From a virus (taxonomy: Duplodnaviria; Heunggongvirae; Uroviricota; Caudoviricetes): a DNA stretch of 64,000 nt. Shown here in pieces: positions 15,247 to 51,504 of this stretch. Position numbers and translations under genes: made by a program. Under the pieces are notes generated by a model. The model searched no databases and was not told the DNA's origin. It saw only the letters and a list, made by a program, of their open reading frames with translations. Position 1 is the stretch's first letter. Each line of letters begins with the position of its first letter. The stretch spans positions 1 to 64,000 of the IMG/VR virus record IMGVR_UViG_3300033149_001657. One strand, written 5' to 3'.

Positions 15247-15793
15247 TGTAACCCCAATGCAAACAATCCTTTACTATGTCTTCATATCCATTCTTCCTAC
15301 ACCATCTCAGAAAATATGTGAGAGATCCCCCACCGTTTGGAAATGGTGAAGTCTCAAGTGCTCTAGATATGTCTGCAAATATATTGAAAGAATCCTCATC
15401 TCCATCTCCAATATTGAACTCTACAAAATCATCATCCAAACTAAGAAACACAGATCCATTCCCTCTAGACACATAGACAGATACATAATCATTATTCATC
15501 AACCATGATGGTAACTTCCTGACCAAGCTGTGAGGCAGCTTATCTTTGTGAATTCCAATATGTCTTACACCATAAGTATCTGCTATAGTCACATCATCAA
15601 GATCAATTTCTTGATATATATGTTCTCTATCGTAAAGTATTGATAGAGGAGTCTTAGAGTACGAGGTTATCCATTCATCCACAGCCACTGCAGAACTGGT
15701 CTTTTCTAGTACTGATCTTATCAGACTTTTTAGATCATCTAAATCTTCAAATTCAACCTTGATCACGAGTTCTGAACAGTTAGGATGAATCAT
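15230..15793 (-). CDS. HPNCSE-motif protein, paralog B
   Basis: Starts MIHPNCSELVI; contains NGGGSLTYFLRWCRKNGYED. Confidence 0.45.
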   Translation of the reverse strand: MIHPNCSELVIKVEFEDLDDLKSLIRSVLEKTSSAVAVDEWITSYSKTPLSILYDREHIYQEIDLDDVTIADTYGVRHIGIHKDKLPHSLVRKLPSWLMNNDYVSVYVSRGNGSVFLSLDDDFVEFNIGDGDEDSFNIFADISRALETSPFPNGGGSLTYFLRWCRKNGYEDIVKDCLHWGYSDDTS

Positions 15794-18344: not shown

Positions 18345-19292
18345 CTACTCATCGGATTTTGGTAAAGAGTATATCATTGGATTTCCTTGTTCATCCGTAG
18401 ACACTATTAGAACATCAACATTCGGTGCTATCTCTTTAAGAGCTTCTAAATATAGATATAATTTTGCTAAGTCCTCTGCATCATCGATACCAGCTGCTCT
18501 AGCTATCATCTCTATAGATTCTCTAGTAGCATTAGCAACTATCAATCTAGTCTCAGCTTCAGCTTGAGCTATTCGTATCTTCTGTTGTGCCTCTGCATCA
18601 GCCAGAACCAATATACGTTCTCTCTCAAACTCTGCTTGTATTTTCTGTTGTTCAGCTACCATCTTATCTTCGATAGCCTGCATGTATTTCTCTGGTAATG
18701 CTATATTCCTTAAATCAAATTCCAAGTGTATTAGAGCTCCTTTAAGAGACTCTGTGTTACGTAGAGCATCGAATACAGCTTCTTGAATAGCATACGCTAC
18801 TTCCTCTCTCCTAGTTATCATCTGTGTAGCTGTAAAGTTCTTAGTAACAAATCTGATAGTCTCTCTTACTGTAGAAGCTATAGCTCTGTCTTCCCAGTCT
18901 AAGTTTGGATACGATAGGTAAAGATCTTTGAGTTTTTCTGGACATAGACTCCATCGTACCATAATGTCTATAGTAGCTTCTAGCTGATCAGACGTAAAGC
19001 ACTTAACAGCAGGGTATTCTGCATAAATATCAGTTCCGTCTCCCCACATCCCCACAGATTCTGTAGCATAGTAAATGTATACTGTTCTATACCATGGCAT
19101 CTTTACAAACCACGTAGGTCCAAGTATTGGACCAGATATTGTACCAGTCATTGGATCCACTAACAATACACCATATCCTGTATCCACTGATCTAAACATG
19201 GTACCAAAGAATATACCTAGAGATGCACCAGCTACTATACCAATCACTAGTAGTATTTTTAGGAGTCTATTTGATCTATCATTCTCCCACAT
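18345..19292 (-). CDS. SPFH/band-7 (prohibitin/HflK-stomatin) family membrane protein
   Basis: N-terminal TM helix; Ala/Glu/Gln-rich coiled region QKIQAEFERERILVLADAEAQQKIRIAQAEAETRLIVANATRESIEMIARAAG typical of band-7 proteins. Confidence 0.75.
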   Translation of the reverse strand: MWENDRSNRLLKILLVIGIVAGASLGIFFGTMFRSVDTGYGVLLVDPMTGTISGPILGPTWFVKMPWYRTVYIYYATESVGMWGDGTDIYAEYPAVKCFTSDQLEATIDIMVRWSLCPEKLKDLYLSYPNLDWEDRAIASTVRETIRFVTKNFTATQMITRREEVAYAIQEAVFDALRNTESLKGALIHLEFDLRNIALPEKYMQAIEDKMVAEQQKIQAEFERERILVLADAEAQQKIRIAQAEAETRLIVANATRESIEMIARAAGIDDAEDLAKLYLYLEALKEIAPNVDVLIVSTDEQGNPMIYSLPKSDE

Positions 19293-26414: not shown

Positions 26415-27032
26415 CTATAAGCTAGATTTATCTCTTCCACGTATCTTACTATACTTATAATTATTTATAGCTTTCAGAATCTCATTGATGTCTACTGGAC
26501 AGTAGTTCCACACATCAACACCGACATTTACTAGATACGTTCTAGATGTCTTCTTTACTTTCCATCTATCATGAACATGTCCTACTAGATTGATAGGATA
26601 GTCTGGATTGTGATCAATGGGATTGTGAGTACAGTAGATATCATTGCCACCTATTCTGAGAACAAGAGACTGGATAGGAGTGTTAAGTGAGTTGTTGTGA
26701 TCATGATTACCTTTCAGCAGAACAATATTGCCATTGAGCTGGTCAAGATAGTAACTAGGCTTATGGAGCTTCTTGTAAAACATGAAGTCTCCTAGATGAA
26801 TAACAATATCATGTTTATCTACTCTGGAGTTCCATAGCTGAATCAGTCTTATATCCATGTGATCAGCTGACTTGAATGGTCTATTACAATACTTTATAAT
26901 ATTCTCATGGCTAGCTACTAAATAGTAGCTAACTTTCATGACCAAAGTGTGTATCCGATGTAAACCAAGTCTTGATATCTCATCCCTCCCAGAATTAGAT
27001 ACTATCCTCCAGTTCGTATAAACACTGAACAT
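26415..27032 (-). CDS. calcineurin-like metallophosphoesterase
   Basis: Motifs HLGDF, LKGNHDH and GHVHD (the GDxHG / GNHE / GHxH set). Confidence 0.65.
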   Translation of the reverse strand: MFSVYTNWRIVSNSGRDEISRLGLHRIHTLVMKVSYYLVASHENIIKYCNRPFKSADHMDIRLIQLWNSRVDKHDIVIHLGDFMFYKKLHKPSYYLDQLNGNIVLLKGNHDHNNSLNTPIQSLVLRIGGNDIYCTHNPIDHNPDYPINLVGHVHDRWKVKKTSRTYLVNVGVDVWNYCPVDINEILKAINNYKYSKIRGRDKSSL

Positions 27033-28293
27033 ACACTCTGTAGAGAAGTGAACCAGATATATCTCCTAGACTAGCAGCTAAAGAGGATAGAACCTCAGCT
27101 TTCTTTGACAAGTCCATACCTTTATTCCTTAGTTTAACCATATGAGATCTAACTACCTCTTTAAGATCCTTTGGTGTTGGAGCCAATCTGTGTCTGATGA
27201 TAGAACGTATCTTATTCTCTGATTGTTCTATCAGATCTGATTCTATATCCTCAGCAAGCTCCTCCTTTACTATCGGATAGAGTTGTTCTGGTGTAGAGTA
27301 ATGTGGATAATTCTCCTTAGCTTTACGTACAGCTTTGTATATGATAGATACTGGTATCCCTTTAGATGCTATCTTCCATGACTTCTCTTTTATCTCATCA
27401 CATTTTAGCTTACAGAAATGAACATCCATATCAATATTTGAGAAATGTTTAGCTACAAACCCTTCGTATCCATCCTCTCCAAGATACTCCTTAGCTTCAT
27501 ACTCTATACGTTCTATCTGCTTACGAGTAAGAATACCAGACCACATCTCTTCTACGAATGGAATGTCATACTCTTGACAGAGATCTCTTGACTTTATAGG
27601 ATTAAGAAACTTAAGAGTACAAGTATCTACCACATCAAATACTTTGAAAGCTATAGGTATAGAATACTGTATGAACTCTCCTCTATTCAGATATCCGTAT
27701 AGTTCTCCAAATACTAAGTAATCATCTTTACATACTCTCTCTATTTTCTTAAGTAGCTCTCCATTATCTATCTTAGTAAACAGCTCTTTCCAGTGTGATA
27801 CTTGTCTCTTCATAGCCTGTAGAGATTGAACGTCCCATCTAGGCATCAATCTCGTTTTGCCCATTATTTCTCCATTAGGTAAAAGAAACAATCCAATATT
27901 AGTACCATCATATTTAGCTTGAACTATCACTTCTTTATCTATTACTTTTGTATCTAATGAGTAACGAATTTTTGGATAGCCTCTGATAACAAATGACTTA
28001 CTATCAAATAGTGAGAATATAGATCCCATAAGAGAGTTTCTTTTAAGATATATTACTCCAGTCCAGTCATGTCCATTCATTTTAAAGTGAAAGCTTCTTA
28101 TCTCACTAGGCTTACACTTTAGATGTTTAGTTACTATCGTTCTTATATTCTGTAATCCCTTTGTATGTTTTAGATCTTCTCTGATATTAGATAGTCGTTC
28201 AGATAACTCACTCATCATCATCCTTGCTCCAGATATTACGAAACTCTCCTCTTTCATCATTATCAATGATATGCCATAAAGTACAATAGTCAT
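26995..28293 (-). CDS. ATP-dependent RNA ligase (Rnl2-like nucleotidyltransferase); true start probably at an internal Met
   Basis: Motif I AKYDGTN, motif III FGELYG, motif IV EGFVAKH, motif V CKLKCDE. The N-terminus overlaps the upstream ORF 28208-28486. Confidence 0.6.
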   Translation of the reverse strand: MTIVLYGISLIMMKEESFVISGARMMMSELSERLSNIREDLKHTKGLQNIRTIVTKHLKCKPSEIRSFHFKMNGHDWTGVIYLKRNSLMGSIFSLFDSKSFVIRGYPKIRYSLDTKVIDKEVIVQAKYDGTNIGLFLLPNGEIMGKTRLMPRWDVQSLQAMKRQVSHWKELFTKIDNGELLKKIERVCKDDYLVFGELYGYLNRGEFIQYSIPIAFKVFDVVDTCTLKFLNPIKSRDLCQEYDIPFVEEMWSGILTRKQIERIEYEAKEYLGEDGYEGFVAKHFSNIDMDVHFCKLKCDEIKEKSWKIASKGIPVSIIYKAVRKAKENYPHYSTPEQLYPIVKEELAEDIESDLIEQSENKIRSIIRHRLAPTPKDLKEVVRSHMVKLRNKGMDLSKKAEVLSSLAASLGDISGSLLYRVYVQCLYELEDSI

Positions 28294-32007: not shown

Positions 32008-32898
32008 CTACCCAACTCTTTCCAGTGTCTCAATATCATCCTTTATTTCTTTAAGCTCTGCTTTGGTGAGCTTCTCTGATAGAAGTTCATCCGTAATATC
32101 GATACCTTTCTTGATGCAATATCCAATATTCACACACCATGCATCTTCTCTATCCATAGCCCACATACACTTCTCATCAAATATTCTACATTTAGCATCA
32201 TCAGATATTTTCTCGTCTGTAAAACCTATTACTATCTCATCATCTTCATATTTGGAGTGTTTGTTCATTTCTTTATTTCTAAAGTTACAATATCCATAGT
32301 CAGAATATGCTTTGTAATATTGTTTCTCCTCAATCTTCTTTCCTGTGTCCTCTAGAAACTTCTCTATTTCACCAGTAAGTAATATGCTTACTTTACCATC
32401 TCCAGTCAATATACTTCCACATGGCACCTCTACAGAAATCTTAGCTTTAAAATCAAAGTCATTATCCACTACTATTGAAAATGGATGATTACAATTTACG
32501 TATTCTTCATCTGTACTAGAATGCCATGCACCATTCTTGAAAGGATGATAATGTATCACACCTTTACCTACTCCTATGTCAGGATCAGATACTGATACTG
32601 ATGAGCTAGTAACTTTCTGTTCTGGTATAATCATATCCTTGACTATGAATCCTCTATCTGTTTCTTCATAGTCTAGATAAGCTAACCATTCTGTAGAATA
32701 CTGTTTCACTAACAATAATATTTTAGAAAATATGTCCCATGGGATCTCTATCTCTTTAGAGTTTTTGTATGGACAGTATGTATGTCTATTACCGTCAGAC
32801 CATACTGTATTCTTGTAGCTCGTATATCTTGTTATCTTATTCTGATTCTTGCTCTTCTTCAATTCCTTTGATCCTCCATACTCTTTCATTCTTATCAC
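32008..32898 (-). CDS. JAB/MPN (JAMM) metalloprotease-domain protein, deubiquitinase-like
   Basis: Motif E70..H116-Y-H118-PFKNGAWH-SSTD fits E-x(n)-HxH-x(7-8)-S-xx-D. Overlaps the E1 gene by 62 nt, so operonic. Confidence 0.5.
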   Translation of the reverse strand: MIRMKEYGGSKELKKSKNQNKITRYTSYKNTVWSDGNRHTYCPYKNSKEIEIPWDIFSKILLLVKQYSTEWLAYLDYEETDRGFIVKDMIIPEQKVTSSSVSVSDPDIGVGKGVIHYHPFKNGAWHSSTDEEYVNCNHPFSIVVDNDFDFKAKISVEVPCGSILTGDGKVSILLTGEIEKFLEDTGKKIEEKQYYKAYSDYGYCNFRNKEMNKHSKYEDDEIVIGFTDEKISDDAKCRIFDEKCMWAMDREDAWCVNIGYCIKKGIDITDELLSEKLTKAELKEIKDDIETLERVG

Positions 32899-33523
32899 CT
32901 ATGACTTTAGTTACTATCTCCATCATCTCCTTATTTGATAGAAATGAACTTGGAGATCTATCAGAATATGCTAACCAACATGCTATCTGAGCTATGAAAC
33001 TAGCTGGAATAACCCAGCTAGGAACTATATTATATCCTTCTTGATCATCACCCCACGTTACTTCAGATAGCTTATAATTTTTAGATATTGTAACATGTTC
33101 TCCATCGTAGGAAGCTCTAATGAGAGTAAAATGCATTCTTCTCCAGATCCTCTCAATTATTTTATGAGCTTTTGAGTTATCAGTAGTATCAAAAACTATA
33201 TCACATTGACCAAGAAGATCAGCTGTTTCTTCAACAATCCTTCTCTCTATAGCAAATACTGTAGCATCTGGTCTAATCGAAATAATGAAGCTCCTTAAAA
33301 CCTTAGATTTCTTTTTTCCTATTACATCTTTAGGATATGGTAGTCTGTTTAAGTTAGTTACATCCACAAAGTCATCATCAAACAAATAGATAGTGTCTAC
33401 TCCAGACATAGCTGAATAGATACCTACCCATGTTCCTATTCCACCACATCCTATTATTCCTATCTTATGTGGAATATGCAATTTTAACTCACTCTGCCTT
33501 GAATACATCTTCACACACTCCAA
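32837..33523 (-). CDS. ThiF/MoeB/E1-like adenylyltransferase
   Basis: Motifs IGIIGCGGIGTWVG (GxGxxG), DDDFVDVTNLNRL and DIVFDTTDNSKAH. Confidence 0.8.
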   Translation of the reverse strand: MECVKMYSRQSELKLHIPHKIGIIGCGGIGTWVGIYSAMSGVDTIYLFDDDFVDVTNLNRLPYPKDVIGKKKSKVLRSFIISIRPDATVFAIERRIVEETADLLGQCDIVFDTTDNSKAHKIIERIWRRMHFTLIRASYDGEHVTISKNYKLSEVTWGDDQEGYNIVPSWVIPASFIAQIACWLAYSDRSPSSFLSNKEMMEIVTKVIGDKNERVWRIKGIEEEQESE

Positions 33524-39622: not shown

Positions 39623-39850
39623 TTAGGGGTGTTTGAGTAGAGCTTTCAGAGTTCTTATTCGTTCTCTCCAGATTCTAAAGGCGTTGTTCTCTAGAGATCT
39701 CTGATGATTGACCATAGATTTGAACTCTCCAGATGTTTCATAAAGTATTGAATATCTCCTTATCATCTCATTGCTTATCCTGTTTTTCCCTAGATGTTGA
39801 ATGTCTTGATATACTCTCTGAATTTCTCTCTTAATGTCCTCTACGTTCAT
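39623..39850 (-). CDS. early-region small protein
   Basis: Preceded by palindrome copy a. Confidence 0.4.
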   Translation of the reverse strand: MNVEDIKREIQRVYQDIQHLGKNRISNEMIRRYSILYETSGEFKSMVNHQRSLENNAFRIWRERIRTLKALLKHP

Positions 39851-39912
39851 ACTCCGTTATCTCCCAAAGGTGTTCTAGAATAAGAAGTATCGGCTTATAA
39901 AGATTTGGATAA

Positions 39913-39942
39913 TTCAACAATCTTAGTAAGCTTATTGCATAA
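39913..39942. promoter_or_regulatory. early palindromic promoter/operator motif, copy a
   Basis: ttcaacaatcTTAGTAAGcttattgcataa followed by an A-run; upstream of gene 39623-39850. Confidence 0.4.
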
Positions 39943-39983
39943 TCAATTAAAAAAATGGTAACTAACGATAGTAACTAAACTCT

Positions 39984-40235
39984 CTACTTCGATGAACTAA
40001 CCTTCTTTCTCCAGCTCCAATATTTGGATCCTCTTAGCTTTTCAACATTAGATAAGGCACTGTTGAGAGCTTCACTGACATCCTTGAATCCATCTCCATA
40101 TACTCTAAACTCCCAAATAGCTATGGCATATTCCCTTTCATCATTTCTCCTACTAACATCAGCTATCTCAATAAGATACTCTCCATCTGAAACTCTTAAT
40201 GGACTAACAAACTCTCTCTTACTCATTCTCATCAT
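39984..40235 (-). CDS. early-region small protein
   Basis: Preceded by palindrome copy b plus a GATAGTAACTA motif. Confidence 0.4.
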   Translation of the reverse strand: MMRMSKREFVSPLRVSDGEYLIEIADVSRRNDEREYAIAIWEFRVYGDGFKDVSEALNSALSNVEKLRGSKYWSWRKKVSSSK

Positions 40236-40286
40236 CTCCTAGTGTTTGAAAGGGATAGTAACTAAAAGTATTAATAAGCTTTGGGA

Positions 40287-40316
40287 TTATGCAACAATCT
40301 TACTAAGCATATTGTA
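40287..40316. promoter_or_regulatory. early palindromic motif, copy b
   Basis: ttaTGCAACAatCTTACTAAGcatattgta plus A9. Confidence 0.45.
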
Positions 40317-40323
40317 AAAAAAA

Positions 40324-40336
40324 AGATAGTAACTAT
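40324..40336. promoter_or_regulatory. GATAGTAACTATC junction motif (perfect) followed by a 9-nt A/T run
   Basis: Between the stop of 40339-40755 and palindrome copy b. In the transcript the 5-bp-stem hairpin plus U9 looks like a weak terminator. Confidence 0.3.
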
Positions 40337-40338
40337 CT

Positions 40339-40755
40339 CTAGTTATCCTCTAGATAGATATGGAAGTAACAATAGAACATTGGTAGCTCATATATGTCAT
40401 CCTCATCTGTCTCTATTTCTTCAATAGGTTCAAAGAAATCATCATCCATCCTTATTCCATCCTCAAGAGCATCCTTGAAAGCTTTGACAAAGTCTTCCTC
40501 TGTAAGGTTCCTTATCTCATCTTCATATTGCTTGAACAAATCCTCGTTTATAGGAACATAGTCACTAGCTCTTAGCTCTTCCTCTAGTATATCTATTATG
40601 TCGGATACTGTCTCTCTATAGTCTATTGGAAAGCCAACTGGTAGACAGGCTACTAGATTCTCCTCTGCAAAGGCATGTCCATGTCCTTGAAAAAAGCTTG
40701 GATCTCCATTATACGTTTCATCTAGCTCTATTACGAATCTAACCATCTGGATCAC
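40339..40755 (-). CDS. early-region acidic protein (GTG start)
   Basis: Preceded by palindrome copy c and the TAGTAACTAT motif 9 nt before GTG. Confidence 0.4.
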   Translation of the reverse strand: MIQMVRFVIELDETYNGDPSFFQGHGHAFAEENLVACLPVGFPIDYRETVSDIIDILEEELRASDYVPINEDLFKQYEDEIRNLTEEDFVKAFKDALEDGIRMDDDFFEPIEEIETDEDDIYELPMFYCYFHIYLEDN

Positions 40756-40797
40756 CAGAACATAGTTACTAACCTAATTGATATTTAAATCTATATG

Positions 40798-40827
40798 TTA
40801 TGCAACAATCTTAGTAAGAGTGTTGTA
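40798..40827. promoter_or_regulatory. early palindromic motif, copy c
   Basis: ttaTGCAACAatCTTAGTAAGagTGTTGTA plus A11. Confidence 0.45.
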
Positions 40828-40847
40828 AAAAAAAAAAGAAAAGAGAA

Positions 40848-41213
40848 TTATGTTGTATTCGATTGAATCATGTCTAGTAGAGTATCAACAAAGTTCTCAT
40901 TGTAAGGAATATACTCATTTGATCCTCCACTGTAATCTTTGAAATCTCTAGCTCTCCTAATCAACATTGAATTCATCAACTTGTATCTAACATCTCCAGT
41001 ACTAAAGTAGAAGACTCTACCATCATTGACTTCAAAGAATCCACTTATAAAGAAGTGTCCTTTATGAAACTCAATCCTCTTTATGTAAGGCTTCAAGATC
41101 CTCCGTATGTCTTTGGTAAAGGTTCTGTAGAATCTTCTAAATTGTTCTGTCTCTCTAGCACTACTCTCAAATCCATCTTCCAACATGTCAAGACTCTTTA
41201 GCTTCATCTTCAA
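40848..41213 (-). CDS. early-region protein
   Basis: Preceded by palindrome copy d. Confidence 0.4.
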   Translation of the reverse strand: MKMKLKSLDMLEDGFESSARETEQFRRFYRTFTKDIRRILKPYIKRIEFHKGHFFISGFFEVNDGRVFYFSTGDVRYKLMNSMLIRRARDFKDYSGGSNEYIPYNENFVDTLLDMIQSNTT

Positions 41214-41258
41214 TTACCCTGAACAAGGATTATTACTGTCTCTTTATAAGACTTTACG

Positions 41259-41288
41259 TTATGCAACATACTTAGTAAGGATGTAGTA
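41259..41288. promoter_or_regulatory. early palindromic motif, copy d
   Basis: ttaTGCAACAtaCTTAGTAAGgatgtagta. Confidence 0.4.
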
Positions 41289-41308
41289 AAATACGAATCA
41301 TAAAAAAG

Positions 41309-41743
41309 CTAGGAAGCTTCTGTATCCTGTTCAGAAGCTTCACTAGACGATGTATCTAGTTCGTTCTCTGGTTCTGATGTCCATAAAAAATTTGGTGGTA
41401 AAGGGAGTTTAGGTCTTCCTACCTTCTCATCAAGAGCTTCCCTAGTTATCTTTAGGAAACTATCTAGATCAACTCCATACTCAATCATTAGATCGTTTAT
41501 CTTTTCTAGTATAGATCTTAGCTTCACTAGCTCATCAATCTGAGCTGTTTTCCTTCCAGCAAAGTGTAGAGCTTCCTCCACACTATCGAATCCTGTATAT
41601 TTCCACTCTTTTCTTATCAGTACATCGATTGTTTCTGAATCAGTTGATTCCTTTACTTCAACCTCTAGACCTCTAACATAGAATTTCCTGATGTTCTCTG
41701 CTCTTATCTGTTTCATCAGATCCATCAAACTTGAACCAAACAT
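41309..41743 (-). CDS. early-region protein
   Basis: Preceded by palindrome copy e. Confidence 0.4.
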   Translation of the reverse strand: MFGSSLMDLMKQIRAENIRKFYVRGLEVEVKESTDSETIDVLIRKEWKYTGFDSVEEALHFAGRKTAQIDELVKLRSILEKINDLMIEYGVDLDSFLKITREALDEKVGRPKLPLPPNFLWTSEPENELDTSSSEASEQDTEAS

Positions 41744-41793
41744 TTCAATTCCTTCCGAACCAAAGTCAGTATCTAGACTTATAAAGATTAAGG

Positions 41794-41825
41794 TTATGCA
41801 ACGAGCTTACTAAGGTTGTTGCATT
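41794..41825. promoter_or_regulatory. early palindromic motif, copy e (perfect arms ATGCAAC / GTTGCAT)
   Basis: ttATGCAACgagCTTACTAAGgttGTTGCATt plus A9. Confidence 0.45.
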
Positions 41826-41841
41826 AAAAAAAAAGGAAAGA

Positions 41842-42408
41842 TTACATGTAGTCGATATTGTTAGCTTGTAGATTGATTATGTCCCATCCAGTTACTCCTA
41901 ATAGATTCACTGCTCTATCAAGATAGAACCCTACTAGACCAAACAGAGCTTGAGCATTATGCTTATAGACTGTTTTGGCATATCTAAGAGCATCAGCTAC
42001 TGATCTAAAGTATCTAATCTTGATTTCTCCATAGAGTCCATGATTACGAGTCCTAACCTCAGAATCCACATCACAAGTCATAGATCCCTTAATAGATTCC
42101 ATGTTTACAGGAACTCCTCCACAGTATCGATATGATACATAGATCTTCATCTCATCAGAGTCCAGACTCATGTTCTCATACTCATTAGCTGATCTGAGAT
42201 AGTCACTATTTAGAGATCTAGGAGATACTACGATCTCAGTCTCCATCACCACTGGGTATGGATCATTGTCATATTTTTCATCTAGTTCCCTCATGTCTAT
42301 AGCTTCACATATCAGACCCAGATAGATATCCTTATCGTCATCCAGTTGACACTTGAATGATTCATCGTCTATGTAGATAACGTTCTCATCCAGTTCCAAT
42401 ATCCTCAC
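41842..42408 (-). CDS. early-region protein (188 aa)
   Basis: Preceded by palindrome copy f, a CTTATATTT box, the TAGTAACTAAGG motif and an AGGTGAT SD. Confidence 0.4.
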   Translation of the reverse strand: MRILELDENVIYIDDESFKCQLDDDKDIYLGLICEAIDMRELDEKYDNDPYPVVMETEIVVSPRSLNSDYLRSANEYENMSLDSDEMKIYVSYRYCGGVPVNMESIKGSMTCDVDSEVRTRNHGLYGEIKIRYFRSVADALRYAKTVYKHNAQALFGLVGFYLDRAVNLLGVTGWDIINLQANNIDYM

Positions 42409-42462
42409 GTCAAATCACCTAGACCTTAGTTACTAGACCTTACAAATATAAGCCTAGTGGTT

Positions 42463-42490
42463 TTGCAACAGTCTTAGTAAGGATGTTGTA
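42463..42490. promoter_or_regulatory. early palindromic motif, copy f
   Basis: tTGCAACAgtCTTAGTAAGgaTGTTGTA. Confidence 0.45.
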
Positions 42491-42639
42491 TTACTTAGAT
42501 CTCAATGCTGGCTGAATAATAAGCATAGCAACTAAAGATCTAGCTTGGTTCTCTGGAAAGTGTTGAAAGAAATATTTGATCTTCTCCTCATCAGTCATGT
42601 CTTTTGTTCTTCGATAGATTTCTCCTAAAGTCATCTTCA

Positions 42640-42915
42640 TTACTTATTACCTCTTGGTTTTCTAAAGAATAAGGTTATTCTCAAGACATCATTGCCTAAT
42701 GCAGTTGGTTTCAGCTTAGTGGACCTGAAATATTCATACCCTAAACCTTTCATCTTCTTCTTTATCTCATCCATTTTCCTATTGATTAAATCCCGATCTC
42801 CATAAACTCCAATGCTAGCTCTGATGTATTCACCTTTGTAATAAACCGAAGGATGAGTTACCCAATAGCTATTACAGCAAGTCTGATCTACTCTCCACCA
42901 CTCAGTTGAGCTCAT
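42640..42915 (-). CDS. early-region basic protein
   Basis: Preceded by degenerate palindrome copy g and a GATAGTGACTAT motif. Confidence 0.4.
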   Translation of the reverse strand: MSSTEWWRVDQTCCNSYWVTHPSVYYKGEYIRASIGVYGDRDLINRKMDEIKKKMKGLGYEYFRSTKLKPTALGNDVLRITLFFRKPRGNK

Positions 42916-42963
42916 ATCGAATCACCGACACATAGTCACTATCTCTGCTTTTAAGACTTAGGT

Positions 42964-42990
42964 TTATGCAACATATTTGTGTGAATAGAC
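42964..42990. promoter_or_regulatory. early palindromic motif, copy g (degenerate right arm)
   Basis: ttaTGCAACAtatttgtgtgaatagac. Confidence 0.25.
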
Positions 42991-43016
42991 TTATACTTGT
43001 TTATCACTGTTCATAT

Positions 43017-43184
43017 TCATATTCTCTCTGTCCTGACTGACATCCAATCCACTGGATTATCTCCACACGAAATAGCTGAAGCTAAGTCTTCTTCAAAAAA
43101 TTCGATAGCTTCAGATTCAGCTTCTTCTTCATTATCAGCTTCCAACTCACATTCCCACGAAATTCTAACTCTGTACTTTGGCAC
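43017..43184 (-). CDS. small acidic protein (55 aa, GTG start) found by manual translation
   Basis: Downstream of palindrome copy h; GGTGAT SD 7 nt before GTG; below the ORF-track size cutoff. Confidence 0.3.
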   Translation of the reverse strand: MPKYRVRISWECELEADNEEEAESEAIEFFEEDLASAISCGDNPVDWMSVRTERI

Positions 43185-43233
43185 TTAAATCACCAGAACC
43201 TAGATAAGCATATCACTATATAAGATTAAGGGT

Positions 43234-43263
43234 TTTGCAACACACTTAGTAAGACTGTTGCAT
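43234..43263. promoter_or_regulatory. early palindromic motif, copy h
   Basis: ttTGCAACAcaCTTAGTAAGacTGTTGCAt. Confidence 0.45.
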
Positions 43264-43431
43264 CAGATCATCTAGCACTTTGATATATTCTTCTAACCAT
43301 CTCAGGTACATGTTTCTTGATAAAGTTGTAATCTGGTTTGATATTGTGTTTTTCACAGCTTTCAATGTATTTCTTTACCCATTTGATACCGATGTCCCAA
43401 GATTTGTGTAGAGTAATCAAAGTCATCATCT

Positions 43432-43746
43432 CTATTGAAGTTTATAGCAACATTCAGAGCATTCTAAGTTTACATGATAGGTATCTTTTCCACATCTAAG
43501 ACATGGAGCAAAACACTGACAGCTACCAAACTGCCAATAGTATAGACAGTTATTTTCTCTACAGAAATCTGGAATCTCATCTCTATAGACAGCTCTAAGA
43601 AACTTTGTCTTATCAAATCTGGGATTATCCAGCTCAAAGTATCTACATAGTCGCCTTACTATCTCCTCTTTGTTTGGTGAAACCCTCAATATCCCAGCTA
43701 TATCCTTATAGTATTTCTTGCTCAACATTTTAATCACAATTCTCAA
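43432..43746 (-). CDS. Cys-rich protein
   Basis: Motifs CQCFAPCLRCGKDTYHVNLECSECC; preceded by palindrome copy i. Confidence 0.4.
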   Translation of the reverse strand: MRIVIKMLSKKYYKDIAGILRVSPNKEEIVRRLCRYFELDNPRFDKTKFLRAVYRDEIPDFCRENNCLYYWQFGSCQCFAPCLRCGKDTYHVNLECSECCYKLQ

Positions 43747-43775
43747 CTAGACAAATCTCTTTAAAAGCATTAGGG

Positions 43776-43838
43776 TTATGCAACATCTTTATTAAGCTAA
43801 TTGCATAATTCAACATGCTTATATAATCATGTTGAAGA
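43776..43838. promoter_or_regulatory. double palindromic motif, copies i and i2
   Basis: ttATGCAACAtctttattaagctaaTTGCATaa followed by tTCAACATGcttatataatCATGTTGAag, a palindrome centred on a TATAAT-like box. Sits between divergent genes 43432-43746(-) and 43935-44681(+). Confidence 0.45.
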
Positions 43839-43934
43839 TACATAATCAGCTTAAGATTATTCCGATAATACCCAAAATCTTAAATATACCTTATTATCTA
43901 TGGATAAGCAAAAACGTAAAGGTGAAACGTAGAA

Positions 43935-44681
43935 ATGGTTAGACCGAGAAAAATCCATATAAGCAAAGAACAGATGAGAATTTGGTTAGAAAATGGAATG
44001 AGCTATAGAGAAATAACACGAGAAATTAAAAAGCTCTATGGCTTAAAATTTGACCCCTCAACGATATATAGGCATACCGTAAGACTCGGACTAAAAGACA
44101 AAAATATACACAAACAATATAAAGACTTTTGTAGAGAACACAAGAAAAAAGTTAAGAGAATCAATACACATTTAGCGACTAAAGCTAATTGCTATATGGA
44201 CATCACAGAGATAAGCTTTAGATCACAAAAGGGCAAACATAAGAGATCAGTTAAACGATATTTTGTGAGCTTAAAGGTAGAGAAAAAACTATATCTTTAT
44301 TACATCAAAGATCAAACAAAAGCTTCAATCCTAACAGCTATGATACATCTAAAGGAATTTATGCCAGCAAATCCGATTTGTTTAGTTGATACACAATTTA
44401 ACCCAAAGCTTCCCGAAAGATCAGAGATAACATTTTGTAACACAGAGAAATGGCATCCAATTAAAAATATGGTTGAAAAACATCACGGATTCAAGACAAA
44501 TATATACGCTAAATTCTGGAAGTTCAAGACCGTATCTTACTCAAAGATGAACGATGAATCTAAAAGACAGCTCCTAAGGATATACATTGAAACGATAGAA
44601 CGTAATGAACACATTGAGATAATCAACAAGGATGAAATGATAACAGAGATATGTAGATTAGCCGAAGCTCAACAACTATAA
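43935..44681 (+). CDS. basic HTH-domain protein, candidate transcriptional regulator (alternatively transposase-like)
   Basis: N-terminal helix-turn-helix MSYREITREIKKLYGLK..STIYRH. The only plus-strand gene in the early region; flanked by inverted copies of the palindromic motif (43809-43838 and 44701-44731). Confidence 0.45.
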   Translation: MVRPRKIHISKEQMRIWLENGMSYREITREIKKLYGLKFDPSTIYRHTVRLGLKDKNIHKQYKDFCREHKKKVKRINTHLATKANCYMDITEISFRSQKGKHKRSVKRYFVSLKVEKKLYLYYIKDQTKASILTAMIHLKEFMPANPICLVDTQFNPKLPERSEITFCNTEKWHPIKNMVEKHHGFKTNIYAKFWKFKTVSYSKMNDESKRQLLRIYIETIERNEHIEIINKDEMITEICRLAEAQQL

Positions 44682-44700
44682 ATCCAAACTCTTTTTTTTT

Positions 44701-44731
44701 TATGCAACAGAATTATATAAGCATGTTGAAA
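44701..44731. promoter_or_regulatory. palindromic motif, copy j (inverted copy of i2) after HTH gene
   Basis: tatgcaacagaattatataagcatgttgaaa; its reverse complement matches 43809-43838 at about 25 of 28 positions. Confidence 0.4.
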
Positions 44732-44976
44732 TAAACGAATAAGAAACGGAGGAGGAGAGATGAGAAATAGATACCTGGACTTAAAATGTACAAGTAAAAT
44801 GTACAAGTAATATCTCTGACTCTATAAAATTTTTAGGAGCTTAAGTTACTATCTTCTAAAAATCTTTTAAATCTGGACAATAAAAACATTACATCATGAG
44901 CAGTGCCTACTGAGATAAAAATAAACGAATCTGATTTGCTTAGCTTCCTCATAAGAATTTTCAGAGTTCTCTCTAA

Positions 44977-44995: not shown

Positions 44996-46399
44996 CTAGA
45001 ATAGGACAAGTGGTTTTCTCCTTGTTCTAGCTACCTTGTAATAGATATCAGCAGTTTGTCTGTTCTCTTCTATATCCCTAAGAGAAAGCATCAATGCAGT
45101 TACTCTATCATCTCCCTTTCTCTTATCCCATGTATAGAGTCTAAGCTCATTTAATAGTGGTTGAAATTCCTCTGGTACTAAGACTTTCTCTTTTTCAAAC
45201 AAAGTCTTCATTCTAACCTGTAGTGTTCCAAGTTCCTTAGCTAGATCAACAGCTTCAGTCATTATTCCTCTCATCCGTAGTCTATCCACTGTTCTCTGAG
45301 ATTCTCCTTTAGGATTCAAATCCACAAATACATAGTCTGGTCTATATCTCAAGGCATAAGCTTCTATCCAATCCTGTATGTTCTCATATTTGATTCTATT
45401 CCATTCAACTACATCAATGATTCTATACATATCGTCGACCTTGTTAGCAACTACAATAACAGACAGATCTCTATATCCGTAGTCTATACCAAATATGATC
45501 TTACCATTTTTCATCTCAGAATCATATCTAAACTTATGTATTCCAATAGAACACTTTCTAATGTCATCTATTGGAACCACAGTATTGGTAACTGGGTATG
45601 GAATACCCTCCCAGAACACTCTGAACTGTTCCTCAGTAAGATTTCTCTTAGCCTCTTCTATCTCCTCTTCTGTAAATCTAGGACAGTCCATAGCTGACCA
45701 TGAGAATCTAGCCCATGTAGTAGGTTTCCTCTGATCTTCAGATAGATCAAAATAATCTGGATATGTCTTCTTGTCCATCCACATCTCAACAAACTTTGAC
45801 GTGTATTCCATTGGAGTACCACTGAGAATGATTAAAGAATCATCGAATCCACCAACAATACGATAAGTATCGTTTATAGTGAAGTCATCTACTAATGCAG
45901 CTTCATCTATTATAACAGCTGGCACATGTTTACCCTGAATAGATTTGAGTGACAGAGGAAGAGCTCTAACTACGGACTTGGTCTTAAATCTTGTAATAGT
46001 CTTTAGAACGTCACCATCTATCACTTCACCAAATATCTCATTCTCTTTGAGAGGAACAGCTGAATACTCATATAGTGATCTAGACTGCTCAGCTGATCCA
46101 GACACTATAACTACATCAAATTTCTTCCTATGATAGTAACTATAAACCAAAGCTAACCACAAAGCTATGCATGCCAGTAGTTTACTCTTTCCAGTGCCTC
46201 CTGCCGAAACTATCATGATTCTTCTTAGTTTTAATTCTGGAAGATATGACATCACTCTAGCTTGATATGGAAATGGCTCTTGATGATATAAGTCTCTGAA
46301 AAAAGAAGAGGGATCTTTGTACCACTGAACTATCTTTAGTTGTATTGGTATTGTCATAAGTCTATCCTTCTGAGAATACTTCTTCCCATCTCTCCACAA
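44996..46399 (-). CDS. terL: terminase large subunit (TTG start, overlaps small subunit)
   Basis: Walker A SAGGTGKSK; Walker B AVIIDEAALV; C-terminal nuclease-like acidic motifs (IDYGYRD, D..D). Confidence 0.8.
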   Translation of the reverse strand: MWRDGKKYSQKDRLMTIPIQLKIVQWYKDPSSFFRDLYHQEPFPYQARVMSYLPELKLRRIMIVSAGGTGKSKLLACIALWLALVYSYYHRKKFDVVIVSGSAEQSRSLYEYSAVPLKENEIFGEVIDGDVLKTITRFKTKSVVRALPLSLKSIQGKHVPAVIIDEAALVDDFTINDTYRIVGGFDDSLIILSGTPMEYTSKFVEMWMDKKTYPDYFDLSEDQRKPTTWARFSWSAMDCPRFTEEEIEEAKRNLTEEQFRVFWEGIPYPVTNTVVPIDDIRKCSIGIHKFRYDSEMKNGKIIFGIDYGYRDLSVIVVANKVDDMYRIIDVVEWNRIKYENIQDWIEAYALRYRPDYVFVDLNPKGESQRTVDRLRMRGIMTEAVDLAKELGTLQVRMKTLFEKEKVLVPEEFQPLLNELRLYTWDKRKGDDRVTALMLSLRDIEENRQTADIYYKVARTRRKPLVLF

Positions 46400-48207: not shown

Positions 48208-49455
48208 ATGCCTATACTAATCAAAATGAATCTTGGATGTAATTTTGAGTGTGAGTATTGTTATCAGAAACCAATTAGAAAGCTAAAAGATAAAGAATGG
48301 AATCTTAAAAGAGTTAAAGAGACAATTAGAAATCTAATATTAACCATGCCAAGAGGATCTAATCAACAGATAGTTGTTCATGGAGGAGAACCATTAACTA
48401 TGCCAATAAATATACTTGAACAGTTACTAGCTCTTTCTTACGAGCTTACTGGTAAATCTAGTATACAAACAAATGGATATCTAATAACTGATAAACATAT
48501 TGAACTATTTAAGAAATACAAGACTAGCGTAGGAATATCAGTAGATGGTCCATTTCAATGTAATGTTTTACGTGGTAAAGGAAACTTGAAAGATAGAAAG
48601 AAACAAACAGAGAGAGTACTTAAGAACTTAAACAATCTTGTAGAAGCTGGTGTTTCTACTTCAGTAATAACAGTAGTACATAAGAAAAATGCAATTGGAA
48701 TAAATAGAGACTTATTAAAGAGTTTTATTTTGGATCTTCATAAGAAAGGTATCCATGGAAGACTGAATCCATGTGGAACAGATGATCCAGAGATCTCTCT
48801 TACTATTGAAGAAGCTATAGATTTCTATACTGACATGTACAAGTTTATGGAAGAGAATGGAATCTATGGATGGTCACCATTCATCGATATATTAAATTCA
48901 CTACAGAGAAAATCATGTGTATGTACATTTAGTGGTTGTGATCCATACTGTACGCCATCAGCTATTTCAGTACTCCATGATGGATCTCTTGGAGTATGCC
49001 TTAGATTATACAATGATGGTAAAGTCTATCTAAGAGATACTACACCTACTTCAATGAGAACACAACTCCTTAAAGAGACAGAATGTAAAGGTTGTAAATG
49101 GTTTGATTATTGTAAGGGAGGATGTAGTGGACTTAGTATAAATTCAGATTGGAGACACAAGGATAGATTCTGTGAAGTATACAAAGCTCTATTTGAATTA
49201 GCACATAACACTCTAAAGTTTGTTGGAATACACCCCCCATCCGTATCACAAATCTCAAGATCAAGATACGAACATTTAGATCATGGTATTAGACACCTTG
49301 ACAGTGATATTGAAAACGATCATACGGATGGAATCAAGCACTCAGACACTGGAACCACTCACCTAGATAGTAACTTCTACTCAAAGTCTGATCATTCGGA
49401 TGGAGAAAGACATGTAGATGGACCAATAGAACATTTAGATAGTAATTGGAGGTGA
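48208..49455 (+). CDS. radical SAM / SPASM-domain enzyme with C-terminal His/Asp-repeat tail
   Basis: Motifs CNFECEYCY; GGEPL; SPASM-like CKGCKWFDYCKGGCSG; roughly 60-aa tail with repeats HLDxG/HLDSN/HSDG/HTDG. Confidence 0.7.
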   Translation: MPILIKMNLGCNFECEYCYQKPIRKLKDKEWNLKRVKETIRNLILTMPRGSNQQIVVHGGEPLTMPINILEQLLALSYELTGKSSIQTNGYLITDKHIELFKKYKTSVGISVDGPFQCNVLRGKGNLKDRKKQTERVLKNLNNLVEAGVSTSVITVVHKKNAIGINRDLLKSFILDLHKKGIHGRLNPCGTDDPEISLTIEEAIDFYTDMYKFMEENGIYGWSPFIDILNSLQRKSCVCTFSGCDPYCTPSAISVLHDGSLGVCLRLYNDGKVYLRDTTPTSMRTQLLKETECKGCKWFDYCKGGCSGLSINSDWRHKDRFCEVYKALFELAHNTLKFVGIHPPSVSQISRSRYEHLDHGIRHLDSDIENDHTDGIKHSDTGTTHLDSNFYSKSDHSDGERHVDGPIEHLDSNWR

Positions 49456-49460
49456 AATAA

Positions 49461-50234
49461 ATGGAGCCTTTTACTAGAATATTATGGTTTGATCAGAAGA
49501 CAAAGCAGATATGGAAAAGACAAATTGAACAAGCTAGAAGACTCTATGAAGCTGTAGAGTTTGCTACTTTTGAAGCTGGTATGAGAGATGTCTATGTTAT
49601 GCACATATATCCAGAGAAGATATCTCAGCAACTAGAAATGATAGCTAAAGGTAAGTATGTTTTTCTTCCTATTCTGAAGAGTAAACGCTATTCTGGATTC
49701 TCTCACAGACATATACCACCAAAACCTGGTGATCCATATTTCATTTACGGAGTAGTAGCCAGAAATCTGGAGGATGCTGAGAGGTTCAAGGAATGTTCCA
49801 TTGGAAACAAGGTAGATCATGTAGAGATTGGAAGATTACTTGGATATCCTGAATGTTGTACAGAATTCTTTGATAAAGTCTGGAATAAGAAAAGCATAGA
49901 TCCAATCTATGAAGCTTATGGTTCAGAGACTTCTATTCATCCATTCTGCAATCAAGCTTTAAGATACTTTGGCATTAGACTAACACCTCATCTTGTTTGC
50001 TCTCCAACATGCAAGAGAACTATTGAAATGGGTAAGAAGTGGTTCAAAGTAGCTGAATCAATAGACTATGGATCTGCTCATACTCTTTTGAAGTTACTAT
50101 CCATGCCGTTTAAATGGTCATGTCTAAATGGATGTGCAATTATAGACACTGAACTATTTAGAGGTGTAACTAATTCGGATAAATGTTCAGAGGAAAAGGT
50201 TGTGATAAATCATGGATGGAACAAAGAACTTTAG
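49461..50234 (+). CDS. Cys-rich protein (GYPECC motif), probable partner of the rSAM enzyme
   Basis: SD GGAGGTGA then ATG; motifs LLGYPECCTEFF, CSPTCKR, CLNGC. Confidence 0.45.
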   Translation: MEPFTRILWFDQKTKQIWKRQIEQARRLYEAVEFATFEAGMRDVYVMHIYPEKISQQLEMIAKGKYVFLPILKSKRYSGFSHRHIPPKPGDPYFIYGVVARNLEDAERFKECSIGNKVDHVEIGRLLGYPECCTEFFDKVWNKKSIDPIYEAYGSETSIHPFCNQALRYFGIRLTPHLVCSPTCKRTIEMGKKWFKVAESIDYGSAHTLLKLLSMPFKWSCLNGCAIIDTELFRGVTNSDKCSEEKVVINHGWNKEL

Positions 50235-50874
50235 ATATTGTGTAGCAACTCTTGTTGGGAGACACAAGATCTATAGTACGAAAGATTTTATAGAACATTT
50301 AGAAAGAGTTACTGTACAGCCAGAGGTTATCGTTGTTTCATCCATACCAGAGATACATGAGATATTCTTCAGATATCAAAAGAATATACCAGTAGTTGGA
50401 ATAACTGGAGATCATGATGAAGGAAGAAATAGAATAGTAGACACTACTTCTGCTAGGGAATCTCTTAGACAATATATTATAAAGAATAACTATGAATGGT
50501 CACTATGGTTGGATAATGACATACTAGTACCATCCAATATAACTGAAAAATTCTTATCGTATCTAAGAAATAATCCTGAAGTTAAAATGGTTCATTCATA
50601 TCATCCAGCTAGACAGTATGGAGAGGAACTTAGACATGGAATCGGTAGTTCTTTTATTCACAAAGATCTTCTAGAAGCTTATCCATTTACTTATGCAGAA
50701 ATTAAAGGTCATTATTTAGGCGATGACCAGATTTGGTTACTAGTGATTAACCAATTAACTAGTATATATTATCCAAGATCCATCATAAGAGGAACACTAT
50801 TTGATCTTAAACATAAACGTGAAGATGGTACAGTAGCTTCCTTATCTGACAAATATAGAGATCAATTACTTTAG
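50212..50874 (+). CDS. DxD-motif nucleotide-sugar-transferase-like protein (GT-A-like, tentative), paralog 1
   Basis: Motif NYEWSLWLDNDILVP; paralogous to the next gene. Confidence 0.35.
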   Translation: MDGTKNFRYCVATLVGRHKIYSTKDFIEHLERVTVQPEVIVVSSIPEIHEIFFRYQKNIPVVGITGDHDEGRNRIVDTTSARESLRQYIIKNNYEWSLWLDNDILVPSNITEKFLSYLRNNPEVKMVHSYHPARQYGEELRHGIGSSFIHKDLLEAYPFTYAEIKGHYLGDDQIWLLVINQLTSIYYPRSIIRGTLFDLKHKREDGTVASLSDKYRDQLL

Positions 50875-50883
50875 TGACTAGAA

Positions 50884-51504
50884 ATGGAACCTTATATAGT
50901 TCTTACTCCATTTGGAGACCACAAACATTATGCTCTTAAAGAGTTTATTAGATCATTGAATAAACTTAGACCTCAACCAGAAATGAAGATTATATGTGCA
51001 GACTTGGACACAAAATACAAAGATGAATTAGAAAGTTACGATCTAGTAGTATATTACAGTCCAGAGATCTTCTCCCCTCCATCTTACCTGGAACGAATAT
51101 GTATGTCAAGAGAAATCCTAAGAAAGAAGTTCATTTATTCCAACTATGAATGGTCATTATGGATAGATTCTGATATTATAGTACCTCCAGATACTCCAAG
51201 AATTCTATATAAAATAGCTAAAGATAGTAACTGTCTGGTAGTCTCAAATGGATATCCAGGAAGCTACGGTCATGAACATGAGATCTGGCATGGATCTGGT
51301 GTTATGTTAACTAACAAGCTAGCTTGTACTGGTTCTAGATTTTGGGTAGCAGATTTCAATGGCAAGCACTTAAGTGAAGACTTTGTATTTCTAAGTATTT
51401 TAGATCAAGGTAGTTATTTTATAGAACAATATACTGGAAGAAAAGCCAGAATAGTGGGAGAATTCGTGAAAGTCAAACATCTAAGCCATAAACATAGTCA
51501 CTAA
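50884..51504 (+). CDS. DxD-motif transferase-like protein, paralog 2
   Basis: Motif NYEWSLWIDSDIIVPP; convergent overlap with the repeat-protein stop. Confidence 0.35.
   Translation: MEPYIVLTPFGDHKHYALKEFIRSLNKLRPQPEMKIICADLDTKYKDELESYDLVVYYSPEIFSPPSYLERICMSREILRKKFIYSNYEWSLWIDSDIIVPPDTPRILYKIAKDSNCLVVSNGYPGSYGHEHEIWHGSGVMLTNKLACTGSRFWVADFNGKHLSEDFVFLSILDQGSYFIEQYTGRKARIVGEFVKVKHLSHKHSH

Follow-up and report, generated by a model that had tools for sequence, protein, structure and literature searches.

The stretch of DNA analysed here (positions 1 to 64,000 of the IMG/VR record IMGVR_UViG_3300033149_001657, referred to throughout, at its full 64,000 nucleotides, as the window) belongs to a divergent tailed virus, with a large terminase subunit (TerL) encoded at 44996-46399, a tail tube protein and a GC content of ~34%. 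In the variable region adjoining the terminase genes lies an array of nine cassettes, each about 90 bp long and built on the same palindrome, that precede nine small open reading frames (ORFs). None of the array ORFs matches a Pfam or PHROG family, and all of them are thus ORFans. At the head of the array stands a divergently transcribed gene (43935-44681, plus strand) for a helix-turn-helix (HTH) protein. The organization of these cassettes, their probable function and their relationship to the neighbouring gene are the subject of this work.

The palindrome array and its cassettes

The palindrome TGCAACA-NN-CTTAGTAAG-NN-TGTTGCA, searched as the 27-bp pattern TGCAACANNCTTAGTAAGNNTGTTGCA with up to 3 mismatches, is found at seven sites of the window (39913, 40290, 40801, 41262, 41797, 42464 and 43236), and no match to the same pattern was obtained in 100 dinucleotide-preserving shuffles. 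The repeated array upstream of small genes reported in a preliminary description of this DNA is thus real, and the count of about ten copies given there can be refined. A position weight matrix scan of both strands adds to the seven strong sites a single weaker full copy at 43779, and none further in the 64 kb; the copy listed at 42964 is a half-site, in which the promoter-proximal arm and the TATA-like box survive, and those at 43809 and 44701 are instances of a related 28-bp palindrome, TTCAACATG-CTTATATAAT-CATGTTGAA. This variant has in common with the 27-bp palindrome the 13-nt half-site T(G/T)CAACA-NN-CTTA, with a centre of 2 bp instead of 1 bp, and its two copies bracket the plus-strand gene 43935-44681. 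The motif is not shared with coding regions, as every palindrome site is intergenic, within 39.9-44.7 kb, in a window that is 92% coding by a crude ORF call and 8% intergenic. Consecutive copies are 270-670 bp apart. A replication origin with iterons and a CRISPR-like array were both ruled out, because each of these intervals contains one or two ORFs.

Nearly all genes lie on the minus strand, and the units are therefore read on that strand. In coding-strand order, a unit comprises the stop codon of the upstream gene, a T-run, the palindrome, the string tAAcCc.aA..cTTATAaa, a leader of 21-31 nt, a Shine-Dalgarno (SD) sequence (GGTGAT or GGAGAT) and the start codon. The 27 bp of the palindrome are made up of two 13-nt half-sites, T(G)CAACA-NN-CTTA, around a single central base. 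Among 26 copies from five loci aligned for the analysis of symmetry, all four bases (G, A, T or C) occur at the second position of the distal arm, and the proximal arm, TGTTGCA, is almost invariant. The nine units of the window and nine more from L001, a relative with 92% TerL identity, align without gaps, and in all 18 the TATA-like 8-mer begins 12 nt past the proximal arm, placing the box about 25-26 bp from the palindrome centre. The CTTATAWA box assigned to each copy in the preliminary description is thus present in all units and in a fixed register, which upholds the notion that each small gene has its own promoter-like unit.

Other elements of that description require adjustment. The A-run said to follow each copy corresponds, on the coding strand, to a run of 7-11 T that lies within a few nucleotides of the preceding gene's stop codon and has no hairpin ahead of it, but it occurs in five of the nine units and is missing from the remaining four; moreover, instead of forming part of a promoter or operator, it is most readily understood as an oligo-T terminator for that preceding gene. 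The distance to the start codon, given as 60-110 nt, measures 59-76 nt from the palindrome centre and 46-63 nt from its near edge. The exception is the TTG start called at 43746, which lies 46 nt from the centre; the ATG at 43728, at ~64 nt, is taken as the true start. The SD is found 28-38 nt past the start of the TATA-like box cTTATAaa. Finally, TAGTAACTA, presented as a component of the unit, accompanies only four to five units and is a member of a separate dispersed family with 36 copies across the window.

The features of the array and of the adjacent gene are as follows.

39851-39983, minus strand: cassette 1, before ORF 39623-39850; T7 at 39949-39955, palindrome 39913-39939, TATA-like box 39894-39901, SD GGAGAT
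40236-40338, minus strand: cassette 2, before ORF 39984-40235; T9 at 40316-40324, palindrome 40290-40316, TATA-like box 40271-40278
40756-40847, minus strand: cassette 3, before ORF 40339-40755; T11 at 40827-40837, palindrome 40801-40827, TATA-like box 40782-40789 (TTTAAATA), SD GGTGAT
41214-41308, minus strand: cassette 4, before ORF 40848-41213; interrupted T-run 41302-41307, palindrome 41262-41288, TATA-like box 41243-41250
41744-41841, minus strand: cassette 5, before ORF 41309-41743; T9 at 41826-41834, palindrome 41797-41823, TATA-like box 41778-41785
42409-42490, minus strand: cassette 6, before ORF 41842-42408; palindrome 42464-42490 abutting the upstream stop codon, no T-run, TATA-like box 42445-42452, SD GGTGAT
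42916-42996, minus strand: cassette 7, before ORF 42640-42915; proximal arm only (42967-42973), with TATA-like box 42948-42955
43185-43267, minus strand: cassette 8, before ORF 43017-43184; perfect-consensus palindrome 43236-43262, TATA-like box 43217-43224, SD GGTGAT
43729-43805, minus strand: cassette 9, before the first array ORF 43432-43746 (probable start ATG 43728); weaker palindrome 43779-43805, TATA-like box 43760-43767
43809-43836, unstranded: 28-bp variant TTCAACATGCTTATATAATCATGTTGAA, with the same half-sites and a 2-bp centre that creates TTATATAA; upstream of the HTH/DDE-like gene; its first 19 nt recur inverted at 44712-44730
43935-44681, plus strand (divergent): gene for a protein with an HTH at the N-terminus and an RNase-H/DDE-like part at the C-terminus, conserved D89, D152 and E181; candidate palindrome binder
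44692-44701, plus strand: T10 run, a putative terminator, 11 nt past the stop of the HTH/DDE-like gene
44703-44730, unstranded: second 28-bp variant TGCAACAGAATTATATAAGCATGTTGAA, TATA-centred, downstream of the HTH/DDE-like gene

The HTH protein and its co-variation with the palindrome

The product of gene 43935-44681 yields only a weak match to HTH_38 in Pfam, and HTH families are likewise the only ones that Pfam assigns to its distant relatives. The C-terminal domain matches no Pfam family, including the Pfam DDE families, and a sequence search of the PDB with the protein returned no match. In the AlphaFold2 model, which has a mean predicted local distance difference test (pLDDT) score of 65.6 and falls below 50 in the region of E181, three N-terminal helices are followed by a b1-b2-b3-a-b4-b5-a arrangement. 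Acidic residues at D89 (b1), D152 (after b4) and E181 (helix) are present in all full-length homologs, and the only Foldseek matches below E = 1e-3 are to the ISCth4 transposase (E = 1.9e-4 and 7.1e-4). The product is called an HTH fused to a DDE-transposase/integrase-like domain, with putative catalysis, and it looks like a domesticated transposase. The family is rare, with 30 proteins at E <=1e-3, about 11 of them full-length, among 1.84 billion representatives; a word-index search of 5.8 billion clusters recovered six homologs, one of which is the window's own protein. A 107.9-kb JGI contig carries the database protein whose sequence is identical to that of the gene product, and no homolog was found in cultured phages or in any phage record.

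The relatives of the virus are metagenomic contigs of 105-128 kb, and the comparison across them links this protein to the palindrome. L001 carries nine copies of the TGCAACA-type palindrome, which is also present in L012, L011 and L008; the HTH protein is 61% identical in L012 and 45% identical in L011, and in both of these a 28-bp variant lies next to the HTH gene. In L002 (56% TerL identity) the motif takes the form TTTAACA-NN-CTTAGTAAG-NN-TGTTAAA, in five copies, with both arms changed symmetrically and with the centre and the downstream register, AAAACC.TAAGTCTTAAATA, maintained. L010, with an HTH protein of 43% identity, has four palindromes centred on CTTAsTAAG with other, longer arms, one of them upstream of the HTH gene. 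CTTAsTAAG-centred palindromes and HTH homologs therefore co-occur in the window, L001, L008, L011, L012, L002 and L010. L003 has neither a homolog of the HTH/DDE-like protein nor a palindrome array, and no array was found in L005/L006 and L009, which are more distant TerL relatives. Three of the six database homologs were traced to their contigs, and none of these is L003, L005/L006 or L009. A scan of IMG/VR with the motif identified only the L001 contig as having multiple copies.

The predicted recognition helix follows the same pattern, reading (P/R)ST(I/V)(Y/F)R where the arms are TGCAACA, and RELVYYY (L002) or KATIFEI (L010) where the arms differ. This is suggestive of a phyletic and specificity co-variation of protein and motif, in few lineages. 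Because both its presence and its HTH sequence track the motif across relatives, the product of 43935-44681 is the best candidate for binding the palindrome. The neighbouring HTH protein singled out in the preliminary description thus retains that place, but with an integrase/transposase-like fold fused to its HTH it does not correspond to a simple repressor-type protein.

This gene exists as a single copy and, wherever a locus extends to the terminase genes, is adjacent to them; L010 alone departs from the strand arrangement. Inverted repeats of 19 nt border the gene in the window, L001 and L011, and not in L002, while an 'ATAA' is found at both gene ends in the window and not in L011; no conserved target-site duplication exists at the gene among the relatives. 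The notion of a recently inserted insertion sequence (IS) was rejected on the grounds that the position beside the terminase is kept across relatives down to 39% protein identity and that no target duplication is conserved. In L012, a 3.4-kb contig, the gene is C-terminally truncated (156 aa) and, within 2345-3373, abuts a much GC-richer gene on the opposite strand, a junction that represents either an assembly chimera or a virus-host junction, the latter being relevant to an integrase role. In L003, T-runs after stop codons (12940-13000, 13541-13560 and 15721-15740) are followed by the repeat AGTGTTAAGCTCTT, in up to three tandem copies, and classical TATA boxes are present as well; different lineages appear to use different intergenic motifs at the same genomic position.

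Proposed transcription control, host domain and ORF replacement

The preliminary description left open whether the host of this virus is bacterial or archaeal. Against cultured phages TerL reaches at best 26% identity, with T5-like phages of bacteria, and the putative capsid ORF has no match among them. The window has no tRNA genes. Pfam and NCBIfam scans of about 50 ORFs identify methylases, radical SAM, ThiF, SPFH and RNA ligase proteins, together with a weak DUF483 match, and a DUF2201 protein that matches many bacterial jumbo phages and is uninformative on the host. A TerL profile run against one genome per GTDB species recovered two loci, both in metagenome-assembled genomes (MAGs) of archaea: a Candidatus Woesearchaeota contig with 92% TerL identity that also carries the HTH gene and a palindrome, and a Thermoprotei contig with 41% TerL identity. 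Between 39.5 and 44.9 kb, sigma-70-like promoters (18 vs 22.4 expected) and intrinsic terminators (2 vs 1.9 expected) are not enriched, and neither type of signal occurs at a cassette; nor do the cassettes contain a TTGACA-like hexamer 16-18 nt from the TATA-like box. All seven coding-strand runs of at least 8 T sit 3-41 nt past a stop codon, and strings that agree with the archaeal consensus for the TFB recognition element (BRE) and TATA box (AAACCTTTATATAC, GAAACATTTATATAC and AAATCTTTTATATAAC) are found elsewhere in the window and in L003. The GTDB loci, the T-runs after stop codons and the lack of enrichment of bacterial signals make the host likely to be archaeal, and the virus may infect DPANN archaea.

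With relatives in archaeal MAGs, no enrichment of sigma-70 promoters or hairpin terminators, and a palindrome that does not behave as a hairpin (see below), the unit is read as an archaeal oligo-T terminator, an operator or activating site and a BRE/TATA promoter. On balance we consider it probable that the array consists of composite control cassettes of a tailed virus, probably archaeal, in which these three parts are combined, the palindrome being bound by a protein dimer, and which double as recombination linkers. According to this model, the T-run would stop RNA polymerase arriving from the upstream gene by archaeal-type oligo-T termination, which calls for at least 5 T past the stop codon and for no hairpin, insulating each unit. 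The TATA-binding protein (TBP) and transcription factor B (TFB) would assemble on a weak BRE/TATA; in archaeal promoters the TATA box is an A/T-rich 8-mer about 23-30 nt ahead of the transcription start. A virus-encoded dimeric HTH protein, for which the divergently transcribed product of 43935-44681 is the candidate, would sit on the palindrome just upstream of the BRE and switch all cassettes together. The position of the palindrome favours activation or recruitment, though repression is also possible. The dimer-binding site proposed in the preliminary description agrees with the fixed register and with the poor fit to a hairpin, and the choice it left between operator and activator site leans towards the latter. 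The 28-bp TATA-centred sites that bracket the regulator gene suggest that it may be autoregulated, and the similarity among cassettes would drive the turnover of ORFs by recombination.

Several points weigh against this interpretation. The case for HTH protein and palindrome binding is one of co-occurrence, in about seven loci and three specificity classes, and that for an archaeal host draws on two metagenomic bins, promoter resemblance and the absence of bacterial signals, whereas the Pfam and NCBIfam scans of the ~50 ORFs revealed no domain-specific hallmark protein. Four of the nine cassettes have no T-run, and the distance from TATA to SD puts the predicted transcription start at or just before the SD, implying a very short leader. 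A bacterial class-II-activator geometry fits too: with TATAAA as the -10, the palindrome centre would be ~39-41 bp upstream of the predicted transcription start. The promoters and terminators are predictions from the sequence, as is the 'early' timing, and the early expression that the preliminary description attributed to the array genes finds no support in this analysis.

The geometry just mentioned is the basis of an alternative that we regard as unlikely, yet worth some weight. In a bacterial host, the CTTATAAA box would be a -10 element without a -35, and the palindrome a class-II-type activator site that switches on a phage gene block, in the manner of CRP-like sites and of Mor/C- and Ogr/Delta-dependent phage promoters. 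Besides the gap-free alignment, which places the site centre near -40, TATAAA agrees with TATAAT at five of six positions, a strong SD precedes every gene and the closest TerL in cultured phages, at a mere 26% identity, is from bacterial phages. Nevertheless, no cassette has a sigma-70-like promoter and no enrichment over shuffles is seen; hairpin terminators are missing in spite of the spacer between genes, and T-runs devoid of a hairpin do not terminate bacterial RNA polymerase. Furthermore, both matches in the genome collection lie in archaeal MAGs, and other promoters of the window fit the archaeal BRE/TATA consensus.

The role as recombination linkers assigned to the control cassettes derives from the comparison of the window with L001, in which collinear blocks of 76-88% identity are broken exactly at ORFs. 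The 121-aa ORF of the window at 40848-41213, after cassette 4, is replaced in L001 by an unrelated ORF of 116 aa (15088-15438), and the 55-aa ORF at 43017-43184 by one of 99 aa (12987-13286); in addition, the window has an extra ORF of 53 aa and L001 one of 51 aa, and all these events are bounded by cassettes. In the cleanest swap (121 vs 116 aa), the two viruses stay orthologous across the T-run, palindrome, TATA-like box and leader as far as the SD, and become so again immediately past the stop codon, so that the exchanged unit is the ORF and not a palindrome-to-palindrome cassette. Another junction falls inside a palindrome and gave rise to the half-site at 42967; since homology to L001 resumes within the palindrome of cassette 7, this can be regarded as a recombination scar. 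The comparison thus shows the cassettes in a second role, that of recombination linkers at the boundaries of ORF replacement, which they play because they are 75-90% alike; this boundary role is an addition to the preliminary description. Non-homologous ORF pairs occupying the same slot in viruses with 92% identical TerL also provide ready-made material for testing the roles of ORFans.

These same replacements invite a different explanation, in which the palindromes would be mainly recombination sites, akin to abutted transposon ends, for a DDE-like enzyme encoded by 43935-44681, which would cut out, insert and shuffle ORFan cassettes by integron-like gene capture, with a secondary role in transcription. 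This we consider distinctly unlikely. Its appeal lies in the integrase/transposase-like fold with conserved D, D and E, in the location of the gene at the head of the array, as is the case of intI in an integron, and in its flanking by 19-nt inverted repeats of the same half-site, together with array sites made of two half-sites 1 bp apart, as in junctions of two inverted repeats, and with a cassette content that varies among relatives and includes one junction inside a palindrome. However, the cleanest replacement exchanges an ORF with orthology through the whole palindrome, TATA-like box and leader, and a TATA-like box at a constant 12 nt from the palindrome speaks for a role in transcription. 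The single-copy gene, syntenic down to 39% protein identity and devoid of a conserved target-site duplication, and a structure model of moderate quality (pLDDT of 65.6, under 50 around E181) with no Pfam DDE match, also argue against it. A fuller version, in which an archaeal virus would harbour a DDE-recombinase gene-cassette system whose enzyme synapses and cuts the 27-bp sites to take up, release and reshuffle ORFans, the sites doubling as junction promoters or operators, seems to us improbable; if true, it would constitute a functional integron analogue, based on DDE chemistry and derived from a domesticated transposase.

The symmetry of the palindrome also has a bearing on its nature. Of the 26 aligned copies, 14 have a standard pair at 2:26 and 12 a broken one; one NN position lacks pairing in 16 copies and the other in 21, and the two-sided changes all stem from one lineage-wide switch, that of L002. 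RNA folds range from -2.5 to -9.5 kcal/mol, three of six copies folding no better than shuffled sequence, and Rfam has no match in the window. As pairing, substitutions and weak folds misfit a conserved hairpin, the palindrome has the behaviour of a binding site with sequence specificity and two-fold symmetry, in constant phase with a TATA-like box. An RNA or DNA hairpin, acting as a terminator or attenuator of the PeSL type, as an RNA processing site or as an N4-like hairpin promoter, is very improbable: the two 7-nt arms are able to pair, three of six copies do fold with z-scores of -2.3 to -3.5 and the PeSL and HGTV-1 motifs discussed below contain true stem-loops, but substitutions within lineages go uncompensated and, as the coding strand has its T-run 5' of the stem and the other strand an A-run 3' of it, neither strand presents a hairpin followed by U, which means that the unit is not an intrinsic terminator.

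Comparable systems and other features of the window

Arrays similar to the one described here are already known in T4-type phages and in HGTV-1, from which the present array differs in its molecular parts. The PeSLs (promoter-early stem-loops) of T4-type phages are cassettes of promoter plus stem-loop that precede ORFans and bring about modular shuffling (Arbiol et al. 2010; PMC2839356; PMC4122927). As in PeSLs, a composite promoter-terminator cassette precedes ORFans in a hyperplastic region and ends in the SD and start codon of the next gene, and recombination between copies results in insertions, deletions and ORF replacements between close relatives. PeSLs, however, have consensus sigma-70 -35/-10 promoters and GC-rich stem-loop terminators, both of which were looked for in the present array and are absent; the array is therefore not a member of the PeSL group. 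Encapsidated mini-circles are a further trait of the PeSL group. No dedicated binding protein has been proposed for PeSLs, whereas the present array has a candidate.

In the haloarchaeal myovirus HGTV-1 (Sencilo et al. 2013, as summarised in PMC3950731), a TATA-like box and an inverted repeat precede most ORFs of one arm, a motif likened to PeSLs for which the authors proposed regulation and shuffling (PMC3950731). In its genome (NC_021328) we find, between 128 and 143.8 kb, at least 21 copies of TTTTTATAG-CTCCTCGTG(S)CACGAGGAG-8 nt-TATATAAA before small minus-strand ORFs, each laid out as a T-rich stretch, a 19-bp palindrome, 8 nt and TATATAAA, in an array that also adjoins the terminase genes. 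The present system thus resembles that of an archaeal tailed virus in having one arm of small ORFs of unknown function and the same order of elements. In sequence, nonetheless, the two motifs are unrelated: that of HGTV-1 has a GC-rich palindrome with a perfect 9-bp stem, which makes a real hairpin and lies 8 nt from the TATA-like box, whereas the present one is AT-rich, 27 bp long, with unpaired internal positions and a degenerate distal half, at 12 nt from the box. HGTV-1 encodes no homolog of the HTH/DDE-like protein (its gp2 is not homologous), and it is not among the TerL matches listed.

Two further classes of systems provide partial parallels. Archaeal upstream activator sites, such as those of Ptr2 in Methanocaldococcus and the GvpE-responsive element, lie 5' of the BRE/TATA. 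The palindrome resembles them as a dyad-symmetric site just upstream of a weak BRE/TATA, in a fixed register, that would act on TBP/TFB recruitment; it differs in being repeated about nine times in a virus and in having a transposase-like candidate binder, for which no homology to Lrp/Ptr2 or GvpE was seen, although no search aimed at it was made. Integrons, in turn, rely on the tyrosine recombinase IntI, on attC sites at the 3' ends of cassettes and on a single promoter, Pc, from which the promoterless cassettes are read, and in IS circle junctions abutted inverted repeats form junction promoters. As in these systems, a divergent recombinase-like gene heads an array of small ORFs separated by imperfect palindromes, and as in IS circle junctions the end-like half-sites are 1-2 bp apart, the 2-bp version creating a TATA box. 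Unlike in integrons, the enzyme is DDE-like and not a tyrosine recombinase, every ORF has its own TATA-like box and, in the best-resolved case, the exchange boundaries miss the palindrome centres.

Almost nothing is known about transcription control in viruses of this kind. The array thus offers a testable regulatory grammar of terminator, operator, BRE/TATA and SD for an uncultivated, probably archaeal virus lineage, in which a cis element is paired with a rare, co-varying candidate protein. Mobile regulatory cassettes that serve as linkers in ORFan turnover now extend to a third, unrelated lineage.

Other features of the window lie outside this array. The dispersed family mentioned above is a palindrome, (GA)TAGTWACTA(TC) (GATAGTWACTATC), with 36 copies in the window vs ~1.6 expected from base composition (e.g. 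at 3100, 5962, 13984, 29759, 36275, 37902, 40327, 44979 and 56545) and 18 within 21 kb of L001, whereas a single copy occurs in L010 and none in L003. ORFs contain many of the copies, and 42% are at most 110 nt upstream of a minus-strand start, vs 21% of random positions. It could be the site of a second regulator or a target of modification or restriction, the latter idea arising from the two N6/N4 DNA methylases encoded in the window. The interval that separates the HTH gene from the TerL operon end contains, at 44731-44790, an 11-mer without variation, ATAAACGAATA, and then a purine-rich stretch and GATACCTGGACTT, with a second partial copy near 44922. The element is kept in six viruses down to 56% TerL identity, with equivalents in L001, L002, L003 (which is without the palindrome system), L004 and L011, and its conservation does not extend to the 16-codon micro-ORF that overlaps it. 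The element probably represents a DNA site (pac or cos, perhaps) or a small RNA driven by the TATA-centred palindrome at 44703.

Several TerL homologs (P0004, P0010, P0018, P0022, P0023 and P0026) measure 730-800 aa vs ~450, and the LAGLIDADG/intein Pfam matches of P0022 indicate that some members of this virus group have a terminase interrupted by inteins. Lastly, a set of auxiliary genes (48208-51504 on the plus strand, 13926-14756, 18345-19289, 26995-28293 and 32837-33523) comprises two radical-SAM enzymes, one SPASM/peptide-maturase-like and one with a viperin-like N-terminus, an SPFH/Band 7 protein, an RNA ligase, a ThiF-like adenylyltransferase, a SpoU methylase and a DUF2201 metallopeptidase-VWA pair. 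The auxiliary set of HGTV-1, composed of SPFH, RNA ligase, metallophosphatase, DNA methylase and a PolX fragment, overlaps with it in part.

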